Assembly: GCA_028702395.1 (NCBI GenBank)
Contig: JAQVOV010000002.1
Span: 27,213-69,632, forward strand
Source of the DNA: Candidatus Omnitrophota bacterium
GTDB taxonomy: Bacteria; Omnitrophota; Gorgyraeia; JABMRN01
Direction of reading: 5' to 3'
DNA length: 42,420 nucleotides
The position numbers and the translations under genes were made by a program. Below, in pieces: positions 6,362-29,756 of the stretch. Position 1 is the first letter of the stretch. Each line of letters opens with the position of its first letter. The notes under the pieces are model-generated. The model worked only from the letters and a program-made list of their open reading frames with translations. It made no database searches and was not told where the DNA came from.

Positions 6362-6461
6362 CCATTAAAAATATAATTGCTGATCCAAATACTTCTAGTT
6401 TTTTGCAGAACACTTTTTTATGTTTGGAAAAACTAAGAATTTTTCCCGAACACTGGCATTT

Positions 6462-7078: not shown

Positions 7079-7105
7079 CTTATACTTCAAATCAAGTCCA
7101 ATACC

Positions 7106-12516: not shown

Positions 12517-12518
12517 TA

Positions 12519-13610: not shown

Positions 13611-13763
13611 GATTCTCCTAAAAAATATACTTTGTTATTAGTTATTTGTTATTAGTGTGAGTGGTGGATCGTCCTAAATACAGTTTTCAAACAAACCCTA
13701 TGAAGAGCCTTCTTTCACACACACTAATAACACACACTAATAACTAACTCCAATTAACTCGCT
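13611..13763 (+). repeat. intercistronic hairpin element (TTGTTAT/TAGTGTG-word arms), opposite orientation to the others
   Basis: Arms at 13631-13663 and 13726-13750. Here the box GTGGATCGTCCTAAATA (13664-13680) reads on the plus strand. Confidence 0.75.
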
Positions 13764-14843
13764 CTAATCTCTGGTTGCGTTCAGCAGCAACCCGATCGCT
13801 ATCATATGCACGATCAAAGAAGTTCCCCCATAACTGACAAATGGCAAAGGAAGTCCTTTTGTAGGGAACAGTCCTACTGAAACACCAACATTGACTATGA
13901 CCTCAAAAGCTATCATAAAAACAATTCCGAAAACAAGCATTTTCCTGAACGTATCATTTATTTTAAAAGCAGCTCTTGTTCCCTGCCAAACAAGTGCAAA
14001 AAATAATATGATCAAAGCAGTAACACCTATAAACCCCAATTCTTCTCCAATAATTGACAAAATAAAATCTGTATGTGACGCTGGTAAAAAGAAAAGTTTT
14101 TGTTTTGATTGTCCTAATCCTACTCCCAAAAGACCGCCTGAACCAAGTGCAATATATGATTGTACTATTTGAAAACCTGTGTCTCTTTCGTCTAACCACG
14201 GATTAATAAAAGCCATTATCCTTTTACGTCTGTATGGAACAGAAAAAATAAGATAATAGATGAAAGGTACAGTTGAAAGGATCGTAACAGCAATATGTTT
14301 AAAATTCGCACCCCCTATAAAGAGCATTAAGAACATCATAAACCCTATAGTCATAGTAGTTCCAAGGTCAGGTTCCAAAAGAACAAGACCCATGATGGTA
14401 CCGCAAACTACAAGAACAGGCAGATATCCTCTGAAAAGATTTATCATGCGGGATTCATTTTTATCTACAAAGTACGCAAGATATATAAGAACCGACAGTT
14501 TAGCCAGTTCTGATGGTTGAACATTGAAAAAAATAAAACTTATCCACCTGCTTGCACCACCTGCAGTGTGTCCTATTCCTGGAATAAGAGCGCATACCAG
14601 TAACCCTATTGTTGTTAAAATAATAAGTTTAGCATGTTTTTTTAAAATATCACAATCAATGGACATAAAAAACAATGCCGCTATCACGCCTATGATCAGA
14701 TTTAAAAGATGCCGTTTAAAATAATAAAGACTATCCCCGAATAACTGCGAAGCATAAATAGCGCTTGAACTGTATACCATTACAAGCCCGAACATAAGCA
14801 GGATAAAAACCGTTGAAACGATCGATATGCGTAAACTTGACAT
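13764..14843 (-). CDS. ftsW: SEDS-family peptidoglycan polymerase FtsW
   Basis: 359-aa polytopic membrane protein of the FtsW/RodA family, in the dcw position for ftsW. Confidence 0.9.
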   Translation of the reverse strand: MSSLRISIVSTVFILLMFGLVMVYSSSAIYASQLFGDSLYYFKRHLLNLIIGVIAALFFMSIDCDILKKHAKLIILTTIGLLVCALIPGIGHTAGGASRWISFIFFNVQPSELAKLSVLIYLAYFVDKNESRMINLFRGYLPVLVVCGTIMGLVLLEPDLGTTMTIGFMMFLMLFIGGANFKHIAVTILSTVPFIYYLIFSVPYRRKRIMAFINPWLDERDTGFQIVQSYIALGSGGLLGVGLGQSKQKLFFLPASHTDFILSIIGEELGFIGVTALIILFFALVWQGTRAAFKINDTFRKMLVFGIVFMIAFEVIVNVGVSVGLFPTKGLPLPFVSYGGTSLIVHMIAIGLLLNATRD

Positions 14844-15085
14844 ATTATTTCCTTTATATGACTTTTAAGTAAAAAGTAAAAAGTTAAAAGTTAAAAGTTA
14901 AAAATCTGTTATCATTGTAGAATCTTATGTTAGGCTCATTTTTAGTGTCTGTGTCTGTTTCTGTGTCTGGAAAGGAACATCCTAAATATAGTTTTTTTAC
15001 ATCTTTTAGAAGGATCCACCACTGACACAAACACAAACACTGACACTAATTACTTTTACCTTTTTCCTTTTTCCTTAATCTTCTA
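14844..15085 (-). repeat. nested composite element: GTGTCT-word element inside a GTAAAAA-word element
   Basis: Outer arms at 14865-14904 and 15050-15076. CATTGTAGAATCTT box at 14905-14926. Inner arms at 14942-14970 and 15020-15049 enclose GGAACATCCTAAATATAG...AGAAGGATCCAC. Confidence 0.8.
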
Positions 15086-16444
15086 TTAACTGAATCTCTC
15101 TTTAACGATCCGCTGAAACACCTCGCCTCTATGTTTATAACTTGTGAACATGTCAAAGCTTGAACACATAGGAGACAAAAGTATCACTTGATCCTTTTGG
15201 GCAATTTTGATAGCCCTATCTATCGCATCTTCCATTGACCCTGCCTTTTCAACAGGAACATTTTTTTTATCCATTACATCAAAAATTTTATCTGCAGCTT
15301 CTCCTATAAGAATTATTTTGTAGACCTTTTCTTTTATTTCAGGTAAAACACTTAAATAATCTCCTCCTTTATCTCTGCCGCCTGCGATCAAAATGATCTT
15401 CTTATCCAAAGACTGTATAGCTCTTTTTGTTGCATCAACATTAGTTGCTTTTGAATCATCCATGAATACGATCCCGTCCTTTTCATAAAATTTTTCGAGT
15501 CTATGGGCTAATGGTTGAAAATCTTCAATAGCACTGATAACAGCTTCAATATTAACTCCGGCAGATATAGCCATAAAAGAAGAGGCGCAAATATTTTCCA
15601 GATTATATTTCCCTTTTAATTTTGTTTTTGGAATATCAAAAAGTTTTTTTACATCATCATCTATCTTTGAATACATGACATTGTTCAATACAAACGCGCC
15701 TTCAACTTCTTCTGTTACACTATAAAAGAACTTTTTTCCTCTGCCTGGTATTATAAGGTCTTTTGAAGCTTTATCATCATGATTTATCAACGCAATATCA
15801 GATTCGATCTGATTTTCAAAAAGTCTGGCCTTCGTATCAGCATAATCATCAAACGAAGTATAACGCTCTAAATGATCATCCGTAACATTCAATATACATC
15901 CTATATTAACTTTAAGATCCACTATTTTTTCCAATTGAAAAGAGCTTATCTCCAATATAACAAATGTATCATCATCAATATTATCTATCTCTCCCGAAAA
16001 AGAGTTTCCTATATTACCGCAAACAATATACTTTTTTGAATCTTTTTCAAACATCTTTCCTAATAAGGTAACTACTGTCGATTTACCGTTAGTACCTGTC
16101 ACAGCAATTATTTTTCCTTTACAAAAATTATATGCAAATTCTATTTCACTTATTATAGGAATGCTGTTGGCGAAAGCATATTTAACAGGAAGACTGTTGT
16201 TATCCACCCCAGGACTAAGTACGATTATATCTGTGCCTGAAAGAAACTCTTCTGTATGCTGGCCGAATTCAACTTCAATAAAATTTTCCTTTAAAACATC
16301 AATATCCTGTGTGATCTTTTCTTCTGAACAACTATCAGTAACAGCCGCTATTGCGCCATGTTTGTGTGCCAGAATAGCAGCATCAAACCCGCTTCTGCCT
16401 AAACCTACAACAACTATTCGTTTGTTTCGTATATCCATCTTCAC
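15086..16444 (-). CDS. murD: UDP-N-acetylmuramoylalanine--D-glutamate ligase
   Basis: 452 aa with N-terminal GLGRSG and the Mur ligase P-loop GTNGKST. Confidence 0.95.
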   Translation of the reverse strand: MKMDIRNKRIVVVGLGRSGFDAAILAHKHGAIAAVTDSCSEEKITQDIDVLKENFIEVEFGQHTEEFLSGTDIIVLSPGVDNNSLPVKYAFANSIPIISEIEFAYNFCKGKIIAVTGTNGKSTVVTLLGKMFEKDSKKYIVCGNIGNSFSGEIDNIDDDTFVILEISSFQLEKIVDLKVNIGCILNVTDDHLERYTSFDDYADTKARLFENQIESDIALINHDDKASKDLIIPGRGKKFFYSVTEEVEGAFVLNNVMYSKIDDDVKKLFDIPKTKLKGKYNLENICASSFMAISAGVNIEAVISAIEDFQPLAHRLEKFYEKDGIVFMDDSKATNVDATKRAIQSLDKKIILIAGGRDKGGDYLSVLPEIKEKVYKIILIGEAADKIFDVMDKKNVPVEKAGSMEDAIDRAIKIAQKDQVILLSPMCSSFDMFTSYKHRGEVFQRIVKERFS

Positions 16445-16648
16445 CTCTAATGGGATTCAAGGTAAAAGTAAAAAATCTGTTACCATTGTGGAATCTTCTT
16501 GGATTTCTTTGTAGGGGCGTATTGCAATACGCCCCTACAAAAACCTCTTTCAGAACTTTCCACATTTTTTGTTCTTAACTAAATTTAGGACGCTCCATCC
16601 TTTTACCTTTTACCTTTTTACTTTTTCCTTATAAGTCTTATTACTCGC
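16445..16648 (-). repeat. composite intercistronic hairpin element (GGTAAAA-word arms)
   Basis: Arms at 16459-16475 and 16599-16628. Box TCTGTTACCATTGTGGAATCTT at 16476-16497. A GC hairpin at 16511-16538 is identical to 8231-8258. Further boxes at 16551-16565 and 16587-16598. Confidence 0.8.
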
Positions 16649-17740
16649 TTAACGCATCTTTAAGCTTGCTAATGACAGTAACACTAAAATTATTGCAATT
16701 ATCCAAAACCTTATTATAACCTTTGATTCATGCCATCCCTGAAGCTGGAAATGATGATGTATTGGCGCCATTCTAAAAACTCTTTTTCCTTTACGCAGTT
16801 TACAAGACGCAACTTGAATGATCACTGAGAGAGCTTCAGCAACAAATATACCACCAACAAAAAACAGTAAAAGTTCTTTTTTTATCAATACACTGATTAT
16901 TCCTATTACACCGCCTAAAGATAATGAACCTGTATCACCCATAAAAACACTTGCAGGATGACAATTGAACCATAAAAACCCAAGACCAGCCCCAACTATT
17001 GAAGAGCACAAGACAGTAAGTTCCCCGCTACCAAACAAATAATATACATTTAAATACTCGCTCATGTTAATATTTCCTGTAATATAGCTTATTATTGCAA
17101 AAGCCAATGCTACAATTGTCACACATCCGATAGCAAGTCCATCAAGTCCATCAGTAAGATTCACAGCATTGCTTGATCCTACGATCACAAGAACCACAAA
17201 TAGAATGTAAAAAATTCCCAAATTTAAAACAGCATTTTTAAAAAAAGGGAAATATAATGTCGAAGACATCTGCGGATCATTATAAAGATAAAGCCCTATC
17301 AAAAAGGCAATAATGACCTGCCCTAAAAACTTTGCACGACTTTTTAATCCTTTATTATGCTGATTTGATATTTTTAAAAAATCATCAATGAACCCTACTA
17401 ATCCTAGCCACAATATGCCTACAAGACCTATAATGATGAATTTATTATCCAGTCTTGCCCATATAAGTGTAGAGCCCACAACTGCAAGGAGTATCAATAT
17501 CCCTCCCATTGTAGGCGTACCTTCTTTATGAACATGTAACTTATGAAGTTCCTGAACATGATCTTTTCTAATAATTTGACCGAAATTCATTTTTGCAAGC
17601 CATCTTATAATAATGGGTCCCAAAATAACACTTATTAGAAAAGCTGTAAAACTAGCCATAGCTGCGCGGAAAGTTATATATTTAAAAAGATTGAACCCGA
17701 ACCAAACATCTTTTAATGGGTAAAGAAAATAATATAGCAT
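16649..17740 (-). CDS. mraY: phospho-N-acetylmuramoyl-pentapeptide-transferase
   Basis: 363-aa polytopic protein with MraY motifs (NAVNLTDGLDGLA, HHHFQL). Confidence 0.95.
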   Translation of the reverse strand: MLYYFLYPLKDVWFGFNLFKYITFRAAMASFTAFLISVILGPIIIRWLAKMNFGQIIRKDHVQELHKLHVHKEGTPTMGGILILLAVVGSTLIWARLDNKFIIIGLVGILWLGLVGFIDDFLKISNQHNKGLKSRAKFLGQVIIAFLIGLYLYNDPQMSSTLYFPFFKNAVLNLGIFYILFVVLVIVGSSNAVNLTDGLDGLAIGCVTIVALAFAIISYITGNINMSEYLNVYYLFGSGELTVLCSSIVGAGLGFLWFNCHPASVFMGDTGSLSLGGVIGIISVLIKKELLLFFVGGIFVAEALSVIIQVASCKLRKGKRVFRMAPIHHHFQLQGWHESKVIIRFWIIAIILVLLSLASLKMR

Positions 17741-17869
17741 TAGACTCCTTTATAGCAACTTTAGCTTTCAGCTTTCAGCAAAAAGATCGGTTTAACAAAA
17801 AGTTTCTTTAAAAAACTCATTTAGGATCTTCCTCTGGCTGAGAGCTGACAGCTGAAGGCTGAAGGCTGC
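17741..17869 (-). repeat. intercistronic hairpin element (AGCTTTC/GCTGAAG-word arms) overlapping the murF 3' end
   Basis: Arm at 17760-17779 faces arm at 17835-17869. Box AGGATCTTCCTC at 17823-17834. The right arm and the box lie inside the murF reading frame. Confidence 0.75.
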
Positions 17870-19223
17870 TTTTCATTAACTCTATCTTTCGCACAACCTC
17901 TTCCATCTTCGCTTTACGTGAACCTTTGACAAGTATTATATCATTAGGTTCAAGTATATTAAACAATTGTTTATACAGACTTTCTTTTTCATTAAAAACA
18001 AAAACATGTGCTTTTTCCATACCATTTTTTATTGCACCATTTGCTATATACGCGGCTTCTTTTCCGACAGTGATAAGTTTGTCTATTTTTGCAGATGCTA
18101 TGTTCTTCCCGATCTGAATATGCAGTTTTTTGGACTGTTCTCCGAGTTCTAACATATCTGAAACAATTATGATTTTTTTATTTTTCCCTATTTTATCCAA
18201 GGATTCTATTGCCTTTTGCATTGATAAAGGATTAGAATTGTAAGTATCATCAATAACTGTATATCTGCCTTTTCTACTTACAAAGAATCTGTTCTTGTTT
18301 TCTGCTCTATATTTTTTCAAACTCAGCGCCATTTTTTTTAAAGGTATATCAAAGATCTGTCCAACAGTTACTGCACATAATACATTATAAAGGTTATGTT
18401 TCCCAATTAAGCTCACTGTAAATTTAACACTACCAACATAAAACGAAAGAGCCCCTTTTTTATCATAATATTTGTCATTATGACTTTTCTTGTCTATGTT
18501 AAACATGACTTTTTTACAGTGTACCTTTATTTTGTTCAAAAGCTGATCATCTCCGTTCAACACAGCTATTCCATTATCAGGCAAAGAATTGATAAGTTCT
18601 TTTTTTTCTTTTAAAACATTAAGGCGTGTCTTAAATCCTTTTAAATGTGCATCTCCAACATTTGTTATCACTCCTACGTCAGGCTGTACTATCTGTGACA
18701 ATCTAGAAATTTCACCGGGTGAATTTGTCCCAAGCTCAACAACACCTACTTCATGTGTTTTCTTTAACTGAAATAATGTTAAAGGAACACCGATAAAATT
18801 ATTCTTTGTTCCTTCTGTTTTAAGAACCTTATAACTTTTAGATAAAAGAAAAGCTATTATTTCTTTTGTGCTTGTCTTTCCTGCAGAACCTGTTATTGCG
18901 ACTATTGGGATATCCATTTTACATCTGTAAAAACAAGCAATATCACCCATATTTTTGATCGTATCTTTTACGAAAAAAACGGGAATATGTTTTTCTACTG
19001 CAACGGCATCTTTTGTATTTTTTGAAGCAATAATGCAAACTGCTCCTTTTTTATATGCTTCGAGTACAAAATCATTACCGTTGAATCTTTCCCCTTTGAT
19101 GGCAATGTAAAGATCGCCCTTTTTCACCTTGCGGGAATCAATGCAAACACCTTTGATCTTTGTTCGATCATCTTTATATTTACGGTTCTTTAGAACCTGG
19201 GCTATTTCTGAAACAGTGAACAT
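17817..19223 (-). CDS. murF: UDP-N-acetylmuramoyl-tripeptide--D-alanyl-D-alanine ligase
   Basis: 468 aa with the Mur ligase P-loop GSAGKTSTKE. The last ~17 aa (SSLQPSAVSSQPEEDPK) are encoded by the repeat element. Confidence 0.9.
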   Translation of the reverse strand: MFTVSEIAQVLKNRKYKDDRTKIKGVCIDSRKVKKGDLYIAIKGERFNGNDFVLEAYKKGAVCIIASKNTKDAVAVEKHIPVFFVKDTIKNMGDIACFYRCKMDIPIVAITGSAGKTSTKEIIAFLLSKSYKVLKTEGTKNNFIGVPLTLFQLKKTHEVGVVELGTNSPGEISRLSQIVQPDVGVITNVGDAHLKGFKTRLNVLKEKKELINSLPDNGIAVLNGDDQLLNKIKVHCKKVMFNIDKKSHNDKYYDKKGALSFYVGSVKFTVSLIGKHNLYNVLCAVTVGQIFDIPLKKMALSLKKYRAENKNRFFVSRKGRYTVIDDTYNSNPLSMQKAIESLDKIGKNKKIIIVSDMLELGEQSKKLHIQIGKNIASAKIDKLITVGKEAAYIANGAIKNGMEKAHVFVFNEKESLYKQLFNILEPNDIILVKGSRKAKMEEVVRKIELMKSSLQPSAVSSQPEEDPK

Positions 19224-19436
19224 TGGACTCCTTTATTTAGTGACTAGTAACTAGAAACTAGTTACTAGAAATAATTGCTTTAAAGCTATTTCGTTTATGA
19301 AGTTTCTTACATAATCTCTCTAAAATTGTTGCTAATTAATCAATTAAATTTTTATTCTCTATCTTAGGATATCTTAAGATCAATTTATCCTAGTCACTAG
19401 TCACGAATCCCTATCACCTGATACCTAGTCACGAAC
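19224..19436. repeat. composite intercistronic hairpin element (TAGTNAC-word arms, ATCTTAAGATCAATTTATC core)
   Basis: Arms at 19237-19268 and 19390-19436. Core motif at 19369-19389. The right arm overlaps the last codons of murE. Confidence 0.75.
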
Positions 19437-20843
19437 TCCTATTAACTCCTTAACAACCTTCACATCATCAAACTTCATCTTCTTGTTTCCTATTATCTGA
19501 TATTTCTCATGCCCTTTTCCGGCAATAATAACGATACTATCCTTTTGTGCGATGTTCAAAGCTATTTTGATAGCTTCACGTCTGTCTTTTTCTATAATGA
19601 CTTTACTAATATATTTTTTTATGCCTTTTACAATATCATTGATAATACAAGCAGGATCTTCTGTTCTTGGATTATCACTTGTGACAAGGACTTTATCTGA
19701 TAACATGCATGCAACTTCACCCATTTTGGGTCTTTTAGTCTTATCTCTGTCTCCTCCGCATCCGAAAACTGTAATAATTTGTTTTGGTCTTATTTCCTGT
19801 AAGGTCCGTAAAACATTTAAAAGTGCGTCAGCAGTATGTGCATAATCGACAAACACTTTAAACTTTTTATTGATCTTTACAGGCTGCAGACGACCATCCG
19901 GTGGTTTAGCATTACCAATACTTTTTATAACATCTTTGATATTAATACCTAAAAAAACACCCGCAGAAACAGCTGCTAATATATTTGAAATATTATGTCT
20001 GCCGATAAGGGATGTTTTTACCTTGTACTTTTTATCAAAAACATTGAGATCAAAAGTTGAACCTGCCAAAGTCATTTCAATGTTTTCTGCATAAACATCC
20101 GTTTTTTTACCTACACTGAAGCCTATGCATCTGTTCTTAAGCTCTTTTTTAAGTATTTTTCCTTTTGGGTCATCAATATTGACAATAGCAATTCCTTTTT
20201 TTTTAAGGTTAACAAATATTTTTTTCTTTGCTTTGAAATAACTATTTATATTTTTGTGATAATCCATATGTTCTGGGGTAAGATTGGTAAAGACTGCCAC
20301 GTCGTAAAAAACATGTCCTGCTCTTTCCTGTTCCAACGCATGAGAAGAAACTTCCATTATGGAGTACTTTATCTTTTCTCTGACAATATCCGACAACAAT
20401 CTGTTGAGTGTAAAAGCATCCGGAGTAGTCCTATCTGCATCAACTGTCTTTTCACCTATCTTATAATAGATCGTTCCTATCAGACCTGTCCTTTTACCTG
20501 AATCCTTTAATATCTTATCCAGCAAAAACGAAACAGTTGTCTTTCCATTAGTACCTGTTATACCAATATTAAAAAGTTTTTTTGAGGGTTCATCGAAATA
20601 CTCTGAACAATTTCTCGAATACTCTTTATGAGAATTTTGTACGATCTTTATTTTTTTAGAAGAAACATGTACCTTTTTGGAAAGTTTCTTCCATATATCC
20701 TTTTGGACTATACAAAACTTTGCACCTTTATCTATTGCAGACTCAATATGCTGATGTCCATCGGAAACAGCTCCTTTTAAGGCAATAAAGATATCCCCTT
20801 TTTGAACTTTTCTTGAATCTGATGTGAATTTTGGTCGTTCCAT
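19425..20843 (-). CDS. murE: UDP-N-acetylmuramoyl-L-alanyl-D-glutamate--2,6-diaminopimelate ligase
   Basis: 472 aa with the P-loop GTNGKTT and a MurE-type DNPR motif (SDNPRTEDP). Confidence 0.9.
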   Translation of the reverse strand: MERPKFTSDSRKVQKGDIFIALKGAVSDGHQHIESAIDKGAKFCIVQKDIWKKLSKKVHVSSKKIKIVQNSHKEYSRNCSEYFDEPSKKLFNIGITGTNGKTTVSFLLDKILKDSGKRTGLIGTIYYKIGEKTVDADRTTPDAFTLNRLLSDIVREKIKYSIMEVSSHALEQERAGHVFYDVAVFTNLTPEHMDYHKNINSYFKAKKKIFVNLKKKGIAIVNIDDPKGKILKKELKNRCIGFSVGKKTDVYAENIEMTLAGSTFDLNVFDKKYKVKTSLIGRHNISNILAAVSAGVFLGINIKDVIKSIGNAKPPDGRLQPVKINKKFKVFVDYAHTADALLNVLRTLQEIRPKQIITVFGCGGDRDKTKRPKMGEVACMLSDKVLVTSDNPRTEDPACIINDIVKGIKKYISKVIIEKDRREAIKIALNIAQKDSIVIIAGKGHEKYQIIGNKKMKFDDVKVVKELIGVRD

Positions 20844-20949
20844 TTAACTCCTTTATAGCATGTTCGAAATTCGGTAATCGAAAATCGGAAATCGAATTGT
20901 TTTTTGTTTTCCGACTACCGTCTCCCGACTCCCGATTTACGAATGCTTA
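20844..20949 (-). repeat. minimal hairpin element: two 35-nt heptamer-word arms and a 12-nt loop
   Basis: Left arm TTCGAAA TTCGGTA ATCGAAA ATCGGAA ATCGAA (20863-20896). Loop TTGTTTTTTGTT. Right arm TTCCGAC TACCGTC TCCCGAC TCCCGAT TTACGAA (20909-20943). Confidence 0.85.
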
Positions 20950-22626
20950 TTAACTCTCCTCCGGCACCTCTAGATACCTTAATGACTTCTGCATAACTTC
21001 CCTGAATACAGGTGCAGCAACACTTCCTCCGAAATAATCGCCCTTAGGTTCATTTACACTCACAACAACAACAAGTTCTGGGTCTTTATAAGGTGCAAAT
21101 CCCATAAATGAAGCAATGTATTTGCCTTCTGCATACCTGCCGCCTATGACCTTTTGTGCTGTTCCTGTTTTACCGCAAGCATAATATCCATTCAATATTG
21201 CTTTTTTCCCTGTACCGCTTTGTACAGCTCCTTTTAATATTTCTTTAACAGTATCTGCACTTTTTCCGCTTATAACCCTTTTTTTTATTTTTGGCTTGAA
21301 TTTTTTTATCACGTTACCATTTTCATCCCTTATCTCTTTAACAATATACGGCTGCATCAGCAATCCTCCATTAGCAACTACGCTCAAAGCATCCGCCAAT
21401 TGTAAAGTTGTACATGAAACACCCTGTCCCATTGGGATAGTTGTCATATCAGATGGGGTCCACGTTCTCACGTTCCTTAAAATTCCATTTTCCTCTCCAG
21501 GGAGATCTATACCTGTTGACTGACCAATTCCAAAATTCAATAGATAATTGTAGAAATCATCTTCTCCTATTTTAGCTGTTGCTTTAACTGTTCCTATATT
21601 GCTGGATTTCTGTATAACTTGAGAAAAAGACAGGTTACCATAACCATGATAGTCATGAAGAACCCTTTTTCCGACGCTATACTGTCCATTCTCACAAAAG
21701 AACATATCATCAGGTTTGACCTTTCCAGTATCAATATCAGCACACGCACTTAACACTTTAAAAACACTGCCAGGTTCATAAACATCTGTTATACACCTAT
21801 TTTTGAGATCCTCTTTCTCTGCTTTTGAATATTGATTATTCTCATAACTGGGATAAGAACACATTGCATATATCTCTCCCGTAATAGGGGACATTACTAT
21901 TATCATTGCAGATTCCGGTTTTCTTTTTTTCACAAGCTCTCGCATTTCGGTTTCTACTGTATGCTGTATTACTTCATCAATAGTAAGTATAATATCATAC
22001 CCTTTTTTGGCAGGTAAGAACTCCTCGTATGATGATATTTTATTTTGCCTGGCATCCCTGAAAAAGCTTTTCCATCCGTATTTACCCCTTAAAAAATTTT
22101 CATAATAAAGTTCTATACCTTCGATCCCTTTGTTATCAATATCTGTAAAACCTATCACATGACATAAGAGATCACCTTTAGGATAACTTCTTTTTGTTTC
22201 CTGTAAAAGGTAAAGCCCGTTGATTTTTGATATTTTTATTCTGGTGGTTTCTTCAGACGAAAGTCCGCGTTTTATCCAGATGAACGCCTTATCTTTATTG
22301 ATACGTTCCCTCACAATGTTTTCATCAACATCTATCAGTTCACATATAGACCTTATAACTTCTTCTTTGTTGGTTATTTCACGAGGAACAGCATAAAGGC
22401 TTTCTATAGGCGTGTCAACTGCAAAAGCCCTGTTATTTCTATCAAAAATACCACCTCTTTCAGGTGCAAGTTCTATTTTAACTCTATGCTGTATATCTGC
22501 TTTTTTCTTGAAAAACTCATAGTTTATCACCTGCCTATTATACACTCTTAATATAAGACATATGAATAATATGCAAAACAAAAAAAGGACTATTAATTGT
22601 CTTTTACGGTTTATGTTTCTATACAC
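20950..22626 (-). CDS. ftsI: peptidoglycan D,D-transpeptidase (class B PBP)
   Basis: 558 aa with an N-terminal TM helix and the transpeptidase motifs SVFK, SSN and KTGTA. Confidence 0.9.
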   Translation of the reverse strand: MYRNINRKRQLIVLFLFCILFICLILRVYNRQVINYEFFKKKADIQHRVKIELAPERGGIFDRNNRAFAVDTPIESLYAVPREITNKEEVIRSICELIDVDENIVRERINKDKAFIWIKRGLSSEETTRIKISKINGLYLLQETKRSYPKGDLLCHVIGFTDIDNKGIEGIELYYENFLRGKYGWKSFFRDARQNKISSYEEFLPAKKGYDIILTIDEVIQHTVETEMRELVKKRKPESAMIIVMSPITGEIYAMCSYPSYENNQYSKAEKEDLKNRCITDVYEPGSVFKVLSACADIDTGKVKPDDMFFCENGQYSVGKRVLHDYHGYGNLSFSQVIQKSSNIGTVKATAKIGEDDFYNYLLNFGIGQSTGIDLPGEENGILRNVRTWTPSDMTTIPMGQGVSCTTLQLADALSVVANGGLLMQPYIVKEIRDENGNVIKKFKPKIKKRVISGKSADTVKEILKGAVQSGTGKKAILNGYYACGKTGTAQKVIGGRYAEGKYIASFMGFAPYKDPELVVVVSVNEPKGDYFGGSVAAPVFREVMQKSLRYLEVPEES

Positions 22627-22643
22627 TTATTATCAGTGGTAAG

Positions 22644-23000
22644 TTATTTAGAATCACGTGCTTCAGCTGTCAATGTGATACTATCAAAAAATCTATCTAA
22701 CATGCTTATACGCGGGCTCAAAGGTTTCTCTTGTTCAGCCTTTACACAAGCATAATAGATGTTTTGCACATCAGCCTCAACTAATTCTATACTTTCTGAA
22801 CTCAACCTCTCGCATAACGTAAACGGAGATTCAAGTTTATTTAGATTATACACCAATTGTTTATGCTCGTCAAGGTAAGTAGAAAGAAGCTGTTCCTGTT
22901 TTGTGATACCGTAGCCTATATTGATGATCTCAACATTTTGATATACATAAAGAAGTGTCAATAATGTCAATGTTATACTTATACTGAAAAACTTTCTCAT
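22644..23000 (-). CDS. ftsL: cell division protein FtsL-like
   Basis: 118 aa with an N-terminal TM helix followed by a coiled-coil-like segment. It lies between rsmH and ftsI. Confidence 0.6.
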   Translation of the reverse strand: MRKFFSISITLTLLTLLYVYQNVEIINIGYGITKQEQLLSTYLDEHKQLVYNLNKLESPFTLCERLSSESIELVEADVQNIYYACVKAEQEKPLSPRISMLDRFFDSITLTAEARDSK

Positions 23001-23132
23001 ATTATATTTTCCTTTCTCTTTATATATCCAAACTCGTAACCTTTATATTTGTTCTTTATTAACTTTCCCCTATCATCTGTAAGCTATCACCAAAAGAAGT
23101 ACCTAAACAACCATTACTAATCGAATTTTTTT

Positions 23133-23198
23133 AGGACCATCCACAAGCTGAGCCCTGCCTGCCGGCAGGCAGGGCTAATAGCTGAAAGCTGATGGCTA
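23133..23198 (-). repeat. hairpin-element arm (AGCTGAA words) carrying an inserted GC-rich palindrome
   Basis: Box AGGACCATCCAC at 23133-23144. The arm AAGCTGAG...CTAATAGCTGAAAGCTGATGGCTA is interrupted by CCCTGCCTGCCGGCAGGCAGGG (23153-23174). The partner arm near 23070-23095 is degenerate. Confidence 0.6.
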
Positions 23199-24110
23199 AT
23201 TTTTTTCTATAACCCTCAATTTCGCACTTCTAGCTCTAGGGTTAGCTGCTGTTTCCTCTTCAGTTGGTATAATAGGTTTTTTTGTCAATATTTTAAAATC
23301 TTCCTTGTTTTTAGCCAGTTCCCTAAAGAATTGTTTGATTATACGGTCTTCCAAAGAATGAAATGATATCACACACAATCTGGCTTTTGGCGCAAGGAAC
23401 GTTACAACTTTTTCTAGTGCCTGTTTTATTGATCCCAACTCATTATTTACTTCTATCCTTATAGCCTGAAAAGTCTTTGTAGCAGGATGTATACGTGACC
23501 TTTTACCGCCCCTGCTAAGCGCTTTTAAGACTATTCCGGCAAGTTCATATGTAGTCTCTATCTTTTTGGTCTTTCTTGCGTTAACAATATATCTTGCGAT
23601 CTTCCTTGATGCCCTTTCCTCTCCAAACTGATAAATTACATCTGCTAATTGTTTTTCAGGATATCTATTGACAACATCAAAAGCCGTAATTCTTTGTGAA
23701 AGATCCATCCGCATATCAAGCGGTCCGTTTTCTTTAATACTAAATCCCCTTTGAGGGGTATCTATCTGAAATGATGATATTCCAAGATCAAATAATGCAC
23801 CATTCAGCTTGTCTATGCCATTGTTCTTTAATATTACTTCAAGTTCATCAAAATTTGCATGCTCAATTTTATAGTTTTTTTCTGGATATTCAGCAGATAA
23901 CCTTTTTTTTGCGATATTTATCGCCTGGCCATCTCTGTCTATTCCTATTAAAAAACCTTGAGGCAAAATTCTTTCAAGGAGCCGTTTTGAGTGTCCTGCA
24001 CAGCCAACCGTGCCATCAAGTATCTTATCCCCATTAATTGGGTTAAGATACTTGATGACCTCTTCAGATAACACTGAAATATGCAACTCACTATTTGTAT
24101 TCAACTGCAA
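23196..24110 (-). CDS. rsmH: 16S rRNA (cytosine1402-N4)-methyltransferase
   Basis: 304 aa with HISVLSEEV at the N-terminus, a SAM-binding DGTVGCAGHS motif and DLGISS. Confidence 0.95.
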   Translation of the reverse strand: MQLNTNSELHISVLSEEVIKYLNPINGDKILDGTVGCAGHSKRLLERILPQGFLIGIDRDGQAINIAKKRLSAEYPEKNYKIEHANFDELEVILKNNGIDKLNGALFDLGISSFQIDTPQRGFSIKENGPLDMRMDLSQRITAFDVVNRYPEKQLADVIYQFGEERASRKIARYIVNARKTKKIETTYELAGIVLKALSRGGKRSRIHPATKTFQAIRIEVNNELGSIKQALEKVVTFLAPKARLCVISFHSLEDRIIKQFFRELAKNKEDFKILTKKPIIPTEEETAANPRARSAKLRVIEKN

Positions 24111-24273
24111 TTCTGTTGGAAGTTAAAAGAAAAGATGCATTAAACCCTAATCTTCTAGAGCTTGTAAGTCTTCTAGAATTAAGTTTTCTCATCTTTCTTA
24201 ACCTCTCAATGTTATTCAAAGGGTCCATGATCTCTGTTGTAGTATTTTCGTTCAAAACAAAAACAGTTCTCAT
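24091..24273 (-). CDS. hypothetical small protein (60 aa) in the mraZ-rsmH spacer
   Basis: The ORF is preceded by GGGGGTGGAAAATG and overlaps the rsmH start by 20 nt. No recognisable motif. Confidence 0.25.
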   Translation of the reverse strand: MRTVFVLNENTTTEIMDPLNNIERLRKMRKLNSRRLTSSRRLGFNASFLLTSNRIAVEYK

Positions 24274-24464
24274 TTTCCACCCCCTTTTTTTGGCACAACT
24301 ATACTTTTGCTGTACCTTTAAAATAAACTCTATAAAGATCGCTTATTTTTGCGATCTTATTCCTTAAACTTTGTTTCTTTGAATTAGCATATCTGAAAAG
24401 CTCTTGCTTATCTCTTTCCTTTATATGTAGTACTGCTAATCCGCTTATCATTTCATTATTCATT

Positions 24465-24905
24465 TTAGTCAAGCTCCATTAAGTTTTCTGCAATATCCTC
24501 GAAAGAACCCATCGTATTATTGTAAAATTCTTCCCATTTTTCTTTTGCCCATATTTCTATACGATTAGAAACCCCCACTATCCTTATATCTTTCTTTATT
24601 AGAGCATAATCAGTCAGGTATTTAGGGATAAGTATTCTGCCCTGTTTATCTGTGACAAGATCTACTGCTCCTGAAAAGAATAACCTGTTGAACTGACGAG
24701 ACTGCTTCTTTGTGAAAGACATTGTCTTGAATTTGTTTTCCTGCTGCTGCCACTCACTTTCAGTGAACATAAATAGACATGTATCAAGTCCCCTGGTAAC
24801 AAAGAACTTTTCTATATAATTATCCTTCATTGCCGTACGAAACTTAGACGGGATAATTATCCTTCCTTTATTATCTAATGAATGTTCAAATTCTCCGTAA
24901 AACAT
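24465..24905 (-). CDS. mraZ: transcriptional regulator MraZ
   Basis: MFYGEFEHSLDNKGRIIIP is the canonical MraZ N-terminus, and a second DxxGR-type repeat (DKQGRILIP) is present. The start is moved to the Met preceded by GGAGGATAAA, because the ORF-track start 24956 lies inside the promoter. Confidence 0.9.
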   Translation of the reverse strand: MFYGEFEHSLDNKGRIIIPSKFRTAMKDNYIEKFFVTRGLDTCLFMFTESEWQQQENKFKTMSFTKKQSRQFNRLFFSGAVDLVTDKQGRILIPKYLTDYALIKKDIRIVGVSNRIEIWAKEKWEEFYNNTMGSFEDIAENLMELD

Positions 24906-24912
24906 TTTATCC

Positions 24913-24939
24913 TCCACTTTCTTCCACTTTGCTCCACTT
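24913..24939 (-). promoter_or_regulatory. three direct AAGTGGA repeats with 10-nt period (candidate MraZ operator)
   Basis: Minus strand reads AAGTGGA GCA AAGTGGA AGA AAGTGGA, between the predicted -10 and the mraZ SD. Plus-strand TCCACTT copies at 24913, 24923 and 24933. Confidence 0.65.
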
Positions 24940-24947
24940 ATATTACA

Positions 24948-24976
24948 AATATACACATCTTGTAATATAAAGTCAA
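24948..24976 (-). promoter_or_regulatory. sigma70-like promoter of the dcw operon
   Basis: Minus strand reads TTGACT (24971-24976), a 17-nt spacer, then TATATT (24948-24953). Confidence 0.6.
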
Positions 24977-25250
24977 GCCTAAATCTCCCTTTTTAAAGAA
25001 ATTTTTTAAGCTTTCACAAAGACCCTATATGGGGTCTATGCATGGGGAAAAACACACTATATATGGTATCCCAAAAAAGCTTTTTTTTATTTCCGAGAAA
25101 AGATTTTACTTTTGGTTCAAATTGAGAAGGGATATTTTTATTTTTTGTGATCATAAAGCATTATAATGGCATGGATATAAAGCACATAAAAGTAATTTTA
25201 AAATGATCTACGACGGAAAACAAAGATCATGATCATTATAATCTAAAATG

Positions 25251-25282
25251 AAAAAGCACGGTTTTAAAAAACCGTGCTTTTT
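25251..25282. terminator. bidirectional rho-independent terminator
   Basis: AAAAAGCACGGTTTT/AAAAAACCGTGCTTTTT hairpin flanked by A and T runs, downstream of the XRE gene. Confidence 0.75.
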
Positions 25283-25313
25283 ATTTATAAAATAAATTAT
25301 TGCTTGGAAAAGA

Positions 25314-25532
25314 TCACTTCAAAAGATCAGACAGAGTAACTCCTAAAGTTTTTGCGATCTTTTTTAGAATATCGTCCGGAATAAGCGGAGGATCTATTCT
25401 TTCAATGCTTTTTAGAAACTCAATATCGATCTCTGTTTTTTCAGCTAAATTTTCTATTGTCATTACCCGTGCACGCCTTGCATTCATTATATTTCGTGCA
25501 ACTTTATATTGTCTATCTACGTTTTCCTGCAT
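25314..25532 (-). CDS. XRE-family helix-turn-helix transcriptional regulator
   Basis: 72 aa with an HTH_3-like segment MTIENLAEKTEIDIEFLKSIE. Confidence 0.75.
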   Translation of the reverse strand: MQENVDRQYKVARNIMNARRARVMTIENLAEKTEIDIEFLKSIERIDPPLIPDDILKKIAKTLGVTLSDLLK

Positions 25533-25721
25533 TTTGTCCTTTCTTTTTAATTAAACTAATACTTTTATTATCTTATTTATTTTTATATTATATCACAATT
25601 TTATATTTAAATTGTAACAGTTTTGTAATAGTTTTAATAAAAAGAATATCTATTAGATAAATTATAACAATCAATGGGTTTGAGCATAATAAACAGTATA
25701 TATTTAGGAAGGATAACTTAT

Positions 25722-25756
25722 AAAAAAAGCCCTATGTTTTCACATAGGGCTTTTTT
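25722..25756. terminator. bidirectional rho-independent terminator
   Basis: A7-GCCCTATG-loop-CATAGGGC-T6, downstream of the 25783-26127 gene. Confidence 0.75.
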
Positions 25757-25782
25757 AAAAATTACATTTGTTGAAAAATGTA

Positions 25783-26127
25783 TTATTCTGCAGCCAAATA
25801 TTGTGGTTCGTCTAGTATTGGCTCATAATCTGCTGGAACTGGAAATGGGAAAGAAACAACTTCATAAGCACCAACAACAGCTCTTACAACAGTGTTCTTA
25901 ACGCCATTAAATAGTCCTACAGTTAGACCTTTTCCAGCGCCTTCTGCATTACCTGTTCTCATCATTGTTCCTGGTATTTCGCACACAGCATCAACTATGT
26001 TCAAAAGACCTCTGCCTAATTTCTTTGCTGCAGGATGATCTACTACAGAATCACCTTCCGCTGCAAATGCTGGCATAACAGAAAGAACTAACGCCATTAC
26101 CATTAAACATGCAAAAACTTTTCTCAT
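25783..26127 (-). CDS. small secreted protein, exosortase-system-associated TIGR04073-like
   Basis: Signal peptide (VFACLMVMALVLSVMPAFA) and the pattern KLGRGLLN...EIP recalled for TIGR04073. The start is set at the Met preceded by AGGAG. Confidence 0.55.
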   Translation of the reverse strand: MRKVFACLMVMALVLSVMPAFAAEGDSVVDHPAAKKLGRGLLNIVDAVCEIPGTMMRTGNAEGAGKGLTVGLFNGVKNTVVRAVVGAYEVVSFPFPVPADYEPILDEPQYLAAE

Positions 26128-27403: not shown

Positions 27404-27431
27404 ATAGCTGCCTCCAACATTTGCTGTTTTA

Positions 27432-27503
27432 GTAGGGACAATTCATGCCCTATACCAGAGTTTTGCTATGCAAAACACGGTATAGGGTTTAAATTGCCCC
27501 TAC
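27432..27503 (-). repeat. 72-nt compound hairpin, copy 1 (inverted relative to copy 2)
   Basis: This copy matches the reverse complement of 29503-29574 at 71 of 72 positions. A GTAGGG(A/G)C...GCCCCTAC outer stem encloses a second palindrome. Confidence 0.9.
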
Positions 27504-27540
27504 TACTTTATAATATTGCAATTAAAATGAAAATTGTTAT

Positions 27541-27996: not shown

Positions 27997-28094
27997 AAAC
28001 CGTTATGCGTTGTGCGTTATTGCGTTATGCGTAAATCGTAAACCGTGAACCGTATATCTTTAAATCAATTAATACTATTCACTATTCACTAAAG
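27997..28094. repeat. hybrid element: CGTNNNN-word arm Y, TATCTTTAAATCAATT core, ATTCACT-word arm
   Basis: Arm Y at 27997-28054, core at 28055-28070, arm AATACTATTCACTATTCACTAAAG at 28071-28094. The complement of arm Y lies 1.55 kb away at 29605-29690. Confidence 0.8.
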
Positions 28095-28099: not shown

Positions 28100-29314
28100 T
28101 TAACCTAAAACCTCTGATAATAGGTCCAGATAATCTGATATCAGTCTGGTAGTAAGAAAATGTTTTCTGACATGTTCTTTTGCTTTTACACCCATTGATT
28201 CACTTAATTTAGGATCTTTAAAAAGCTTTACTACTTTATCTGCACATGCTTTAAGATCATAAGGATCAACTAAAAATCCTGTTTGTCCATCAATGATCTG
28301 ATGAGGAATACCTCCTACATTACCTGCAACTACCGGTTTACCTTTCCATAAAGCTTCTGCTACGACCAACCCAAATCCCTCTTTAATTGATTTTTGGATA
28401 ATGACAGTAGAAAATCGTTGAATAGCATTCACAAGAAGCTCATTATTACCTACAACGAATAGAACATCTCCTTTATCAATATAACTTTTTGCTTTCGCAT
28501 AAACTCTTTCAAATATTTTCATACCTTCAGGGTCATCTGTTGCAAGGTTATAGCAATAAAGAAGCCTGCAATCCACTTTTTCTTTTACAAGTTTAAAAAC
28601 CTCAAGTACTCCTTCAGGGTCTTTCCAAGGATCCATTCTTGACACTTGTGTTAATAAAGGTTTATCTGTTGGGATATTATTATCTTTTATATACTTCATA
28701 ATCTCTTCTTCAGAGAGCTCTCTGTTCTTTAAAGACAAAGGATCTATTGCAGGTTGAATTACCTTTTGAATGACCGGAAGATCAGGTTTTCTGTATTTTT
28801 CGCTTGATATGATAATAGCATCATAACGGATCATGAATTTTTTTAAATACTCCCATAATTCTTTATTAGGATCAGTAATATCTATATGGCATCTCCATAT
28901 CCATGGTTGTTGTTTTCTGTAATAAGATATTAAAGGAAGCGGCTGTGGATCATGAACTATCAAACAATCATATTTATTAAGCTGCGAAAAACTTGCATAT
29001 TCCTGATTTATATCAGTATAAATAGATTTTACTTGTGGGGAAAGATCAATAGGCCCGCTTTGAAGTGCATTGTGAAAACTTTTTGTTACATCAAAAAAAG
29101 CAGGGCTTCCGTGAATTGTACGCCATTCTGCGTCTAAACCAACCTCGTTCATAAGAGGAACCATTCTTCCCAGTATTTCAGCAACACCTCCGCCTAAAAA
29201 TGTTGCGTTTACATTCGCTATCTTCTTACGATATAATTTATTGGCTTTCTTGAATATCTTTGATATCGTTTCAACACCTACAATATCAATATAATCTGAT
29301 ATACTTCTCATCAT
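28100..29314 (-). CDS. treT: trehalose glycosyltransferring synthase TreT-like GT4 glycosyltransferase
   Basis: 404 aa, collinear with archaeal TreT as recalled (GGGVAEIL, FF.VTK.FHNALQ, VHDPQP, PW.WRCHID, VSR.DPWK, EGFGL.V.EA.WKGKPV). Confidence 0.8.
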   Translation of the reverse strand: MMRSISDYIDIVGVETISKIFKKANKLYRKKIANVNATFLGGGVAEILGRMVPLMNEVGLDAEWRTIHGSPAFFDVTKSFHNALQSGPIDLSPQVKSIYTDINQEYASFSQLNKYDCLIVHDPQPLPLISYYRKQQPWIWRCHIDITDPNKELWEYLKKFMIRYDAIIISSEKYRKPDLPVIQKVIQPAIDPLSLKNRELSEEEIMKYIKDNNIPTDKPLLTQVSRMDPWKDPEGVLEVFKLVKEKVDCRLLYCYNLATDDPEGMKIFERVYAKAKSYIDKGDVLFVVGNNELLVNAIQRFSTVIIQKSIKEGFGLVVAEALWKGKPVVAGNVGGIPHQIIDGQTGFLVDPYDLKACADKVVKLFKDPKLSESMGVKAKEHVRKHFLTTRLISDYLDLLSEVLG

Positions 29315-29502
29315 GTTTTACTCCTTTTTTTTAGGAAAAATTATTCTGAAAAGAACCATATATAAAAGTTAATATATTATAACACAATATCATCTCTTGT
29401 GTTCATTTTTTTAAAACGGCTTGATAATGGCAGATTGGTTTAACTAGTTGGACTAATCTGGTCTTAAAGATGAAAGTGTTGGAAATTCTCAACGATGTTT
29501 TT

Positions 29503-29574
29503 GTAGGGGCAATTTAAACCCTATACCGTGTTTTGCATAGCAAAACTCTGGTATAGGGCATGAATTGCCCCTAC
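29503..29574 (+). repeat. 72-nt compound hairpin, copy 2
   Basis: GTAGGGGCAATT + 44-nt palindrome (TAAACCCTATACCGTGTTTTGCATAGCAAAACTCTGGTATAGGG) + CATGAATTGCCCCTAC. Confidence 0.9.
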
Positions 29575-29604
29575 TGAAAAACATGCAATAGCACAATAAC
29601 AAAT

Positions 29605-29690
29605 TACGGTTCACGGTTCACGATTTACGACATACGCATAACGCACAACGCTTTACGACTTACGGCTTGCGACTCACGACTAACGGTTTA
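29605..29690. repeat. heptamer-word arm Y' (about 12 units, TACGGTT CACGGTT CACGATT TACGACA ...)
   Basis: The first 25 nt match the reverse complement of 28030-28054 with 1 mismatch. A further shared 14-mer, ATAACGCACAACGC, follows a one-unit indel. Confidence 0.85.
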
Positions 29691-29756
29691 CCTTAATACC
29701 TAAACTATGTTTTTTAAAAAAGTGTTAGATTCAAAACAAGATCCCATGACTTAAAA

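Follow-up and report, generated by a model that had tools for sequence, protein, structure and literature searches.

The 42,420-nt stretch of DNA considered here (the window), part of contig JAQVOV010000002.1 of a Candidatus Omnitrophota bacterium, harbours a population of hairpins whose stems are made of very short tandem words. Each element is an imperfect hairpin in which a run of three to five tandem 6-7-nt words faces an arm built of the complementary word, and the elements fill the non-overlapping gene junctions of the division and cell-wall (dcw) cluster and of the neighbouring operons. At least eleven local hairpins of this type are found, together with one long-range pair of arrays at 28.0 and 29.6 kb (Table 1). 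The reading that we favour, with about as much doubt as confidence, is that they form a population, specific to this lineage, of mosaic and non-autonomous palindromic repeats akin to doublets of repetitive extragenic palindromes (REPs), known as REPINs, miniature inverted-repeat transposable elements (MITEs) and bacterial interspersed mosaic elements (BIMEs), with stems that are built by slippage and that tolerate shifts of register.

The bare form of the element, consisting only of arms and a loop, is found at 20.9 kb, where an 81-nt feature (20863-20943) occupies most of the 106-nt spacer between the genes for a penicillin-binding protein (PBP/ftsI) and murE. The minus strand is the mRNA-sense strand at this locus, and each arm comprises about five tandem 7-mers, for which Tandem Repeats Finder (TRF) calls period-7 arrays at 20864-20896 (4.7 copies) and 20911-20935 (3.6 copies). 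The pattern TCG-N4-TCG-N4-TCG occurs four times in the window, always at this locus, against an expectation of 0.02. In the best gapless register over 34 nt the two arms form 23 Watson-Crick pairs and six G.U pairs with five mismatches, and all six wobble pairs form on the mRNA-sense strand only (six G.U, no A.C). As minus-strand RNA, the interval 20844-20949 is predicted to form a single long, imperfect stem of -31.8 kcal/mol (z = -4.25), which none of 200 shuffles equalled, and the stem is followed downstream by CAUGCUAUAAAGGAG. The plus strand of the same interval reaches -23.5 kcal/mol (z = -2.5), and the complementarity of the arms as read on that strand was not significant in the partner test.

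The same construction is seen at the other loci, where the TRF arrays and the duplex energies agree that arms of tandem 6-7-nt words face an arm of the complementary family, as had been claimed in the original prediction made from the letters alone. The four further arm pairs which that prediction listed are real when base pairs are counted at the best register, with 22 Watson-Crick and two G.U pairs over 28 nt at 9.2 kb, 21 and one over 32 nt at 13.6 kb, 19 and two over 29 nt at 3.9 kb, and 22 and four over 31 nt at 6.2 kb; the coreless description of the 20.9-kb copy, as arms around a 12-nt loop, was likewise borne out. Across the window there are 26 arrays of period 6-7 (at least 2.5 copies, TRF), 12 of which lie in inverted complementary pairs less than 400 nt apart, and 11 of the 24 merged arrays have a significant partner in the partner test. 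The mean duplex energy of arms with their own partners is -28.4 kcal/mol, compared to -11.4 +/- 2.6 kcal/mol when partners are randomly reassigned, and none of 20,000 permutations reaches the real value. Moreover, in 10 of the 11 arm pairs the real duplex energy is unmatched by 200 base shuffles.

The pairing is nonetheless not specific to the locus, which is where the original prediction fails, since it held that each arm pairs with its own partner. Among loci of shared word families the mean duplex energy is -23.5 kcal/mol with the own partner, -25.8 kcal/mol with an arm of the same family from elsewhere and -8.2 kcal/mol with an arm of a different family. The shuffled-word control, run as it had been proposed, tells the same story, in that arms with shuffled word order pair as well as those in native order at nine of 11 loci, everywhere, in fact, but at 13.6 kb and in the 28.0/29.6-kb pair. 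When the arms are slid against each other, the registers that come next in energy lie exactly one or two words away and are almost as good, a shift of 6-7 nt costing little. Complementarity is a property of the word family and not of one mirrored sequence, and specificity resides in some seven word families rather than in loci. Since any word pairs with any complementary word, the stem survives whole-word slippage and is hence register-tolerant. The families recur at distant loci much as had been listed: GTGTCN at 3.9 and 14.9 kb, GTAAAAG at 8.2, 14.9 and 16.5 kb, AGCTNNC at 9.2, 17.8, 23.1 and 37.2 kb, TAGTNAC at 6.2 and 19.2 kb, and CGTNNNN at 28.0 and 29.6 kb.

This architecture is restricted to a lineage. 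The closest relative found, and the only close one, is a 12.6-kb long-read contig from ENA (L043, sample ERZ28669879), whose MurE and MurF are 76% and 70% identical to those of the window; its coverage is low and it contains frameshifts, so that its homopolymer lengths are unreliable. L043 has 11 arrays, six of them paired, and because the same architecture is present in this independently assembled contig an assembly artefact is ruled out. No pairs, and between zero and four arrays each, were counted in the first 42 loci taken for comparison from other organisms, some of them AT-rich, and once later loci had been added the partner test returned no significant partner in 47 other loci. In public collections the nearest matches to the MurE and arginyl-tRNA synthetase (ArgRS) proteins of the window come from metagenome-assembled genomes of Candidatus Omnitrophota, the best MurE match being 44% identical among species representatives and 46% among metagenome contigs. 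Searches with ArgRS and FtsQ did not recover the organism of L043.

The window has a G+C content of 33% and carries nearly all of its genes on the minus strand. Pfam scans of the window proteins place the dcw cluster at 7.1-25 kb, with the order mraZ, mraW, a small ftsL-like open reading frame (ORF), PBP/ftsI (20950-22626), murE (19425-20843), murF, mraY, murD, ftsW, murG, murC, murB, ddl, ftsQ and ftsA. Nine junctions in the window hold spacers of 76-242 nt. The overlapping junctions murC-murB and murB-ddl, along with murG-murC (2 nt), are element-free, and the same junctions overlap without an element in L043. All the period 6-7 arrays of the window are intergenic or overlap the 3' ends of genes, and the hairpins extend from shortly past a stop codon to 4-22 nt ahead of the next start, leaving GCTATAAAGGAG free. 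This last sequence precedes many start codons, both in the window (8144-8166, 9174-9195, 17741-17758, 20844-20862 and others) and in L043, with a conservation that exceeds that of a Shine-Dalgarno motif. The start codons of RsfS (6212) and of the helicase (3914) abut a hairpin arm and are without a recognisable Shine-Dalgarno motif. At murF the ORF reads through a heptamer array (17817-17868) and ends 18 residues past the end of the protein alignment, compared to five in L043, such that a repeat element supplies coding sequence to an essential enzyme; the 5' arm of the 17.8-kb element (17836-17868) lies inside this ORF and encodes the extended C-terminus, and it is counted in favour of a mobile repeat, as an insertion that takes no account of coding.

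Many of the hairpins are mosaic in build, and one recurrent module is core A, 15 nt long (sense GTGGAACGTCCTAAA). It lies against the 5' arm at 9.2, 8.3, 16.6, 17.8, 23.1, 37.2 and 1.9 kb, against the 3' arm and in inverted orientation at 13.66 kb, and on both sides at 14.97 and 15.01 kb, so that both orientations are found. Core B (sense AATTGATTTAAAGATA) takes the same stem-loop position at 4.09, 6.26, 19.37 and 28.06 kb, with an inverted copy at 19.27 kb. These modules of 15-19 nt always lie at the stem-loop junction and are inner extensions of the stem. A scan of viral contigs for core A gave 17 matches, all in unrelated coding contexts and at about the level of chance, and a scan of the same contigs for the Family 1 core gave none.

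Family 1, of which six copies were aligned across the two genomes (alignment A1), has the layout (AAGRTAA)n - GGGTGGAnGnTCCTG - variable centre - AAGATTCCACAATGATAACnAGATTTTT - (TTAYCTT)n. Its centre is an insertion hot spot: in three copies it contains the GTAG palindrome GTAGGGGCGTATTGCAATACGCCCCTAC, and at 14.9 kb it has taken up a whole further heptamer hairpin. In the window all three copies pair a 5' arm of GGTA/GGAA-type words with a 3' arm of TACC/TACT-type words, and two of the L043 copies combine GATA-type with TATC-type words, a covariation of G:C to A:T that runs through every word of both arms. Such genome-specific covarying variants imply that information passes between copies, either through transposition of genome-specific subfamilies or through gene conversion. 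The third L043 copy is a hybrid (GATA-type 5', TACT-type 3') that pairs poorly and, together with an L043 junction occupied by unrelated arrays, it indicates that pairing is not strictly maintained. On inspection, no direct repeat that would mark a target-site duplication was seen in the flanks of the six copies, although with array ends as fuzzy as these one could be missed.

Nested GTAG...CTAC palindromes (GTAGGGGC...GCCCCTAC) lie at 8231-8258, 16511-16538 and 37131-37158. The 28-nt palindrome GTAGGGGCGTATTGCAATACGCCCCTAC is identical at the first two of these sites, at about 8105-8132 in L043 and in five IMG/VR contigs (L052-L056) of 49-58% G+C, and such base-for-base identity across very different genomes suggests either a horizontally spreading palindrome or strong constraint. 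A composite palindrome of about 76 nt (GTAGGGGCAATT...GGTATAGGG...CCCCTAC) is present in two copies of opposite orientation some 2 kb apart (27430-27505 and 29498-29579), and has a simpler relative at 37131-37158; by its looks this is a family of REPIN-type doublets that stands apart from the heptamer hairpins. The GC-rich palindromes at 23153-23174 and 39368-39392 have a CTGCCTGC...GCAGGCAG motif in common and may form a third small palindromic repeat family.

Comparison with relatives shows that elements are gained, lost and replaced, and suggests that the gains are recent. At orthologous positions filled and empty sites are found, the murD-ftsW junction measuring 242 nt in the window against 54 nt in L043, and where both genomes have a hairpin the word family or the core differs at four of five junctions. 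The Family 1 copies at mraY-murD are probably orthologous, judging from their similar 3' flanks. In relatives with 52-56% MurE identity the dcw genes overlap or abut (L048 and L050, and L044 at most junctions), from which it follows that the compact operon is ancestral. Two more distant Omnitrophota relatives, L045 and L051, have sparser hairpins. At the ArgRS-helicase junction the window (3.9 kb), L045 (near 11840-11960) and L051 (11730-11790) each have a heptamer hairpin, with differing words, and L051 has another heptamer-arm hairpin near 9100-9150. Two of the IMG/VR contigs that carry the identical 28-nt palindrome (L052 and L053, 52-57% GC) also have heptamer-arm hairpins, one around 4700-4910 of L052 (-67 kcal/mol) and the other at 3557-3679 of L053, a GGCTGAA/CTTCAGC hairpin that resembles the AGCTNNC family of the window and folds at -66.8 kcal/mol. 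In L053 (57% G+C) a minus-strand ORF of 799 codons (2643-5042) encloses both this hairpin and the palindrome (3247-3274), which may be intragenic insertions unless the ORF is spurious.

Table 1. Word-built hairpins and related arrays of the window, and the state of the equivalent junction in L043
Feature	Positions	Strand	Composition and location	Same junction in L043
20.9 kb, 5' arm (sense)	20909-20943	-	TTCGTAA ATCGGGA GTCGGGA GACGGTA GTCGGAA; begins 6 nt past PBP/ftsI stop codon; ftsI-murE junction, bare TCGNNAA hairpin	Family 1 copy
20.9 kb, loop	20897-20908	-	12 nt, A-rich, sense AACAAAAAACAA; no conserved core	
20.9 kb, 3' arm (sense)	20863-20896	-	TTCGATT TCCGATT TTCGATT ACCGAAT TTCGAA; ends 19 nt ahead of murE start, directly upstream of GCTATAAAGGAG	
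3.9 kb	3919-4137	-	GTGTCN arms 3919-3948 / 4108-4137; core B 4088-4103; ArgRS-helicase junction	
6.2 kb	6214-6313	-	TAGTNAC arms 6214-6244 / 6282-6313; core B 6262-6277; 3' arm abuts RsfS start codon	
8.2 kb, Family 1 mosaic	8167-8353	-	GTAAAAG arms 8167-8196 / 8322-8353; core A 8307-8321; 3' core 8193-8219; nested GTAG palindrome 8231-8258; ftsQ-ftsA junction	
9.2 kb	9196-9309	-	AGCTNNC arms 9196-9227 / 9280-9309; perfect core A 9265-9279; ddl-ftsQ junction	CGTNNNN hairpin
13.6 kb	13631-13750	-	GTTATTA/GTGTGTG arms; core A inverted at 13664-13678; ftsW-murG junction	Family 1 copy
14.9 kb outer, Family 1	14867-15076	-	GTAAAAG arms 14867-14903 / 15050-15076; 3' core 14900-14926; murD-ftsW junction, 242 nt, nested element pair	54 nt, empty
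14.9 kb inner, nested in centre	14942-15049	-	GTGTCN arms; core A copies 14972-14986 and 15005-15019	
16.5 kb, Family 1	16459-16634	-	GTAAAAG arms 16459-16475 / 16599-16634; 3' core 16471-16497; GTAG palindrome 16511-16538; core A 16584-16598; mraY-murD junction	Family 1 copy (5400-5541) without palindrome
17.8 kb	17759-17868	-	AGCTNNC arms 17759-17779 / 17836-17868; core-A-like motif 17820-17834; murF-mraY junction	CGTNNNN hairpin
19.2 kb	19238-19412	-	TAGTNAC arms 19238-19271 / 19388-19412; core B at 19273-19288 and 19370-19385, one copy at each stem-loop junction, the two inverted to each other; murE-murF junction	Two non-complementary arrays
23.1 kb, degenerate AGCTNNC copy	23070-23195	-	Core A 23130-23144; GC-rich palindrome CCCTGCCTGCCGGCAGGCAGGG (23153-23174) within 5' arm; mraW-ftsL junction	
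28.0 kb	28001-28091	-	CGTNNNN array 28001-28054; core B 28055-28070; GTGAATA words 28074-28091; local hairpin weak	
29.6 kb	29606-29700	-	CGTNNNN array; order-specific inverted copy of 28001-28054	
37.2 kb, half element	37131-37218	-	GTAG palindrome 37131-37158; core A 37168-37182; orphan GGCTAAC/AGCTGAA array 37184-37218 without partner arm	
1.9 kb	1929-2026	-	Core-A-like copies 1929-1943 and 1980-1994 around TAGCTCG array 1944-1977; then CTTTTAT array 1996-2026	
Direct array	35458-35719	.	37 copies of CATGACC/CATTACC/CATGACT, higher-order alternation, no inverted partner	

As mobile repeats, the elements would be selfish non-autonomous DNA, which either gene conversion or a factor with its gene outside the window would spread or make uniform among copies; such a factor might be a single-strand transposase of the Y1 or REP-associated tyrosine transposase (RAYT) type. 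Replication slippage would alter the length and the word composition of the arms. The elements would be co-transcribed in the operon mRNA, where imperfect stems of 25-35 bp would come to lie between the stop codon and the next GCUAUAAAGGAG or ribosome-binding site. If they behave as REP/BIME and Correia elements do (PMC3184786, PMC3733652), such stems would uncouple the translation of adjacent cistrons and could act as barriers to processing or decay.

A number of observations weigh against this interpretation. Neither the 42 kb of the window nor the 12.6-kb L043 contig has a transposase or RAYT gene, no target-site duplications were found at the fuzzy, array-built ends of the elements, and no two copies are near-identical over their full length, which means that there is no sign of very recent transposition. 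Cores also combine with differing word families, the GTGTCN arms at 3.9 kb having core B and those at 14.9 kb core A, and such mixing is awkward for a sequence-specific transposase. The word family at 20.9 kb has no other paired copy in the window and lacks a core, and this copy may have arisen in place. An effect on mRNA processing or expression is, moreover, argued by analogy with the described repeats. Weaker hints of selection or polarity on the transcribed strand come from the pooled hairpins of the window and L043 at their best registers, which contain 38 sense-strand G.U against 21 A.C oppositions (binomial P about 0.04 by our estimate) alongside 62 transversion mismatches, and from the GT/purine-rich arm, which by our count is the 5' arm on the sense strand in 14 of 16 hairpins.

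These strand signals, with the sense-only wobble pairs at 20.9 kb, are what would be expected if the hairpins were intercistronic RNA structures selected by the host, a possible though rather unlikely explanation. The stem would then be needed as an RNase III or exonuclease barrier, as a translational uncoupler or to sequester a C-rich Rho-loading sequence, its structure being conserved and its sequence free, and heptamer slippage would provide a cheap way to rebuild it. The consistent placement after the stop codon and ahead of a free GCTATAAAGGAG is in keeping with this, as are the differently worded hairpins at the ArgRS-helicase junction of three genomes. However, in L043 one junction is empty, one copy is a hybrid and one junction has non-complementary arrays, and the other relatives examined have compact operons. 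Core A is inverted at 13.6 kb, and about 25% of stem positions are non-Watson-Crick, half of them transversion mismatches. Sense RNA is indeed the more stable form of the hairpins, by a mean of -3.3 kcal/mol and at 8 of 11 loci, but in random coding windows of equal lengths the sense bias is as large or larger (-5.4 kcal/mol, 81%); a G-rich sense strand suffices to produce it, the fold-strand comparison is uninformative, and the folding advantage was dropped as a sign of selection at the RNA level. Furthermore, as the genes all share one orientation, sense RNA and a single-stranded lagging-strand template cannot be told apart.

Generation in place, without mobility, is improbable. Here slippage would make the arrays, intrastrand template switching (quasipalindrome correction) would make the inverted partner, and the hairpin would grow where it stands. 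The genome is certainly prone to slippage, as the 37-copy CATGACC array and other unpaired arrays attest, heptamers are the commonest long simple repeat in prokaryotes with a proposed link to polymerase slippage (summarised in PMC4679880), and the unique, coreless family at 20.9 kb and the near-equal pairing after one-word shifts would suit such an origin. Template switching, though, predicts a mirrored word order, which the shuffles do not support at nine of 11 loci, and the recurrence of identical short cores and of the Family 1 core at many loci in two genomes, along with word variants common to the copies within a genome, requires information to move between loci. A decidedly improbable proposal is that the heptamer-word stem is a distinct, purpose-built, register-tolerant 'zipper' hairpin, made and homogenised by a clade-specific mechanism and serving as an insulator between cistrons; the hairpins of other words in L045 and L051 and in the two IMG/VR contigs with the identical 28-nt palindrome would be in keeping with it. 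Were it true, the unexplained heptamer arrays known from cyanobacteria, from Beggiatoaceae (TAACTGA) and from other groups might be remnants of such a system, or single halves of it. It is highly improbable that the arrays are double-stranded binding sites for a nucleoid protein or regulator, their inverted symmetry reflecting oligomer binding. Tandem heptamers do bind proteins in some systems, for instance ToxT at the heptads of the ctx promoter, and heptamer repeats near Nostoc promoters change regulation (bioRxiv preprint 10.1101/2022.06.06.494920), yet at least seven unrelated word families in 42 kb are beyond any single binding protein, and the elements lie within operons rather than at promoters.

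Other candidate identities were considered and set aside. Intrinsic (Rho-independent) terminators are defined by a GC-rich stem and a U-tract, and the heptamer elements have no U-tracts; a terminator scan of 6000-25900 gave no site built from heptamer arms, and the only sites inside elements were the nested GTAG palindrome at 8229-8260 and a core-A mini-hairpin at 16587-16601. Neither promoter- nor terminator-like sites were enriched at the elements. Rfam 15 covariance models gave zero matches at gathering thresholds, and at E<=1 six chance-level matches, none of them on the heptamer hairpins. Integron attC sites were dismissed because the genes are in conserved dcw order and are not cassettes, and CRISPR-like arrays were considered from the sequence alone and dismissed. 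Arrays acting as stop codons in three frames were dismissed too: the TAGTGAC words would fit, most other families would not, and one of the arms is itself translated.

Some features of the window depart from the simple intercistronic hairpin. The 28.0/29.6-kb duplex is order-specific (-75.4 kcal/mol, compared to -51.5 +/- 5.3 kcal/mol for word-order shuffles) and brackets 1.55 kb, which includes a gene for a GT4/trehalose-synthase-like glycosyltransferase (28100-29314), a REPIN-like palindrome and a TATAAT-containing upstream region. The arrangement may have come about by a gene-sized insertion into a hairpin element, or it may be a cargo between heptamer-array inverted repeats; the bracketed gene, being the glycosyltransferase, is not a transposase. 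The arrays at 1.9 kb lack complementary partners. That the 37-copy direct array also has none indicates that heptamer slippage acts in this genome independently of hairpins; on the minus strand the array lies upstream of an unannotated small Cys-rich ORF (about 35240-35400), and each unit has an ATG on that strand. Hairpins made from 9-nt words (GTTGAACTA / GGACTAGTT) occur at 1849-1917 and 29431-29460, so word-built stems are not confined to periods of 6-7. Unrelated heptamer words often share TGAC/GTCA or CTGA/TCAG, as in GTGTCAG, TAGTGAC, CATGACC and AGCTGAC in the window, AATGTCA in L052 and TAACTGA in Beggiatoaceae, and the cyanobacterial repeat word TTGGTCA reportedly holds the TGAC/GTCA motif as well; this may be coincidence or a common constraint.

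Elsewhere in the window, ftsA is not followed by ftsZ but by an 893-nt stretch without a long ORF (6213-7105), which holds a terminator-like hairpin (6339-6365) and a minus-strand ORF of about 52 codons (about 6460-6620). A likely defence or mobile-DNA neighbourhood spans 35900-37003 and 38464-42319. It encodes a Fic/DOC protein with DUF4172, a pair resembling a Gp49-like/helix-turn-helix toxin-antitoxin system (38464-39167) and, at 39496-40755, a protein with a predicted pPIWI-associating nuclease domain, adjacent to a tetratricopeptide repeat protein.

The lineage provides a concrete model of slippage-proof stems, in which every word pairs with every complementary word. It also reveals that the dcw cluster, which is essential and normally tightly packed, tolerates a hairpin of 100-240 nt at nearly every non-overlapping junction, and so lends itself as a natural experiment on how operons couple translation and process their mRNA. 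If mobile, the elements would constitute a class of repeat whose ends are set by structure and periodicity rather than by fixed sequence.

Among known systems, the elements resemble the GTAG-tagged, RAYT-associated REP/BIME/REPIN sequences, which are likewise short multi-copy intergenic hairpin repeats that often lie between co-transcribed genes, are mosaic, clustered and variable between related genomes, and are regarded as non-autonomous mobile DNA with a further role in mRNA. GTAG REPs are present in the PVC (Planctomycetes-Verrucomicrobia-Chlamydiae) superphylum and insert into longer palindromes, and REP dimers are inserted within longer palindromes in Anabaena variabilis (PMC3733652); bona fide GTAG...CTAC palindromes are nested in the window elements too. 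In contrast, the heptamer arms themselves are AT-rich and have neither a GTAG tag, which is confined to the separate nested palindromes, nor a fixed sequence, but interchangeable words of at least seven families in one window, and the window has no RAYT gene. Bacterial MITEs (Correia/NEMIS, ERIC, RUP, Nezha) are also non-coding, 80-240 nt long, with inverted ends and stable predicted hairpins, and show filled and empty sites between relatives and occasional fusion to the ends of ORFs (reviewed in PMC3184786). The present elements, at 81-220 nt with inverted arms and no ORF, are similar in form. MITEs have target-site duplications and defined terminal inverted repeats matching a parent insertion sequence, neither of which was seen in the sequence examined here, and the 'terminal repeats' of the present elements are tandem word arrays that vary in number and family.

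Heptanucleotide tandem repeats have been known in cyanobacteria since 1990, and we know of no accepted function or origin for them. The short tandemly repeated repetitive (STRR) sequences of heterocystous cyanobacteria, described by Mazel et al. in 1990, reportedly have the consensus units CCCCAGT, TTGGTCA and CAACAGT, and none of the TRF consensus units of the window matches any of these three. The small dispersed repeats (SDRs) of Nostoc punctiforme are said, by Elhai et al. in 2008, to be mobile modules of 21-27 nt that insert precisely into other repeats. Cores A and B, as modules at stem-loop junctions, are comparable to SDRs so described but have no sequence relationship to them; the insertion of SDR5 into HIP1 is confirmed (PMC4390886, PMC5861425). 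The STRR and TAACTGA-type arrays of Beggiatoaceae, Cyanobacteria and Bacteroidetes are tandem heptanucleotides, nearly all of them between genes and frequently immediately ahead of start codons (PMC4679880; bioRxiv 10.1101/2022.06.06.494920), a description that also suits the intergenic arrays of the window and above all its pure direct array (35458-35719). The taxon and the words differ, and those arrays are described as direct, with 169 direct TAACTGA-type sets and a single inverted repeat in the BOGUAY genome (PMC4679880), whereas about half of the arrays in the window are complementary inverted pairs. This proportion in the lineage suggests that at least some heptamer arrays matter as hairpin stems and not as linear motifs.

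The nearest analogue in the literature searched is a trivial one, namely the (A)n-(T)n palindromic microsatellites of Fusarium mitochondria, which are intergenic, vary in length by slippage and are optional between sister species (PMC7218506). They differ in being mononucleotide tracts with 2-4-nt spacers in an organelle genome, without word families, cores or nesting. The original prediction had taken heptamer arrays in paired inverted arms around conserved cores to be undescribed, and the literature searched, which included searches aimed at STRR but did not extend to Elhai et al. 2008, gave no account of paired inverted arrays. Tandem heptamers and hairpin-forming intergenic repeats are each known already, and what looks new is their union in hairpins with two complementary heptamer-array stems.

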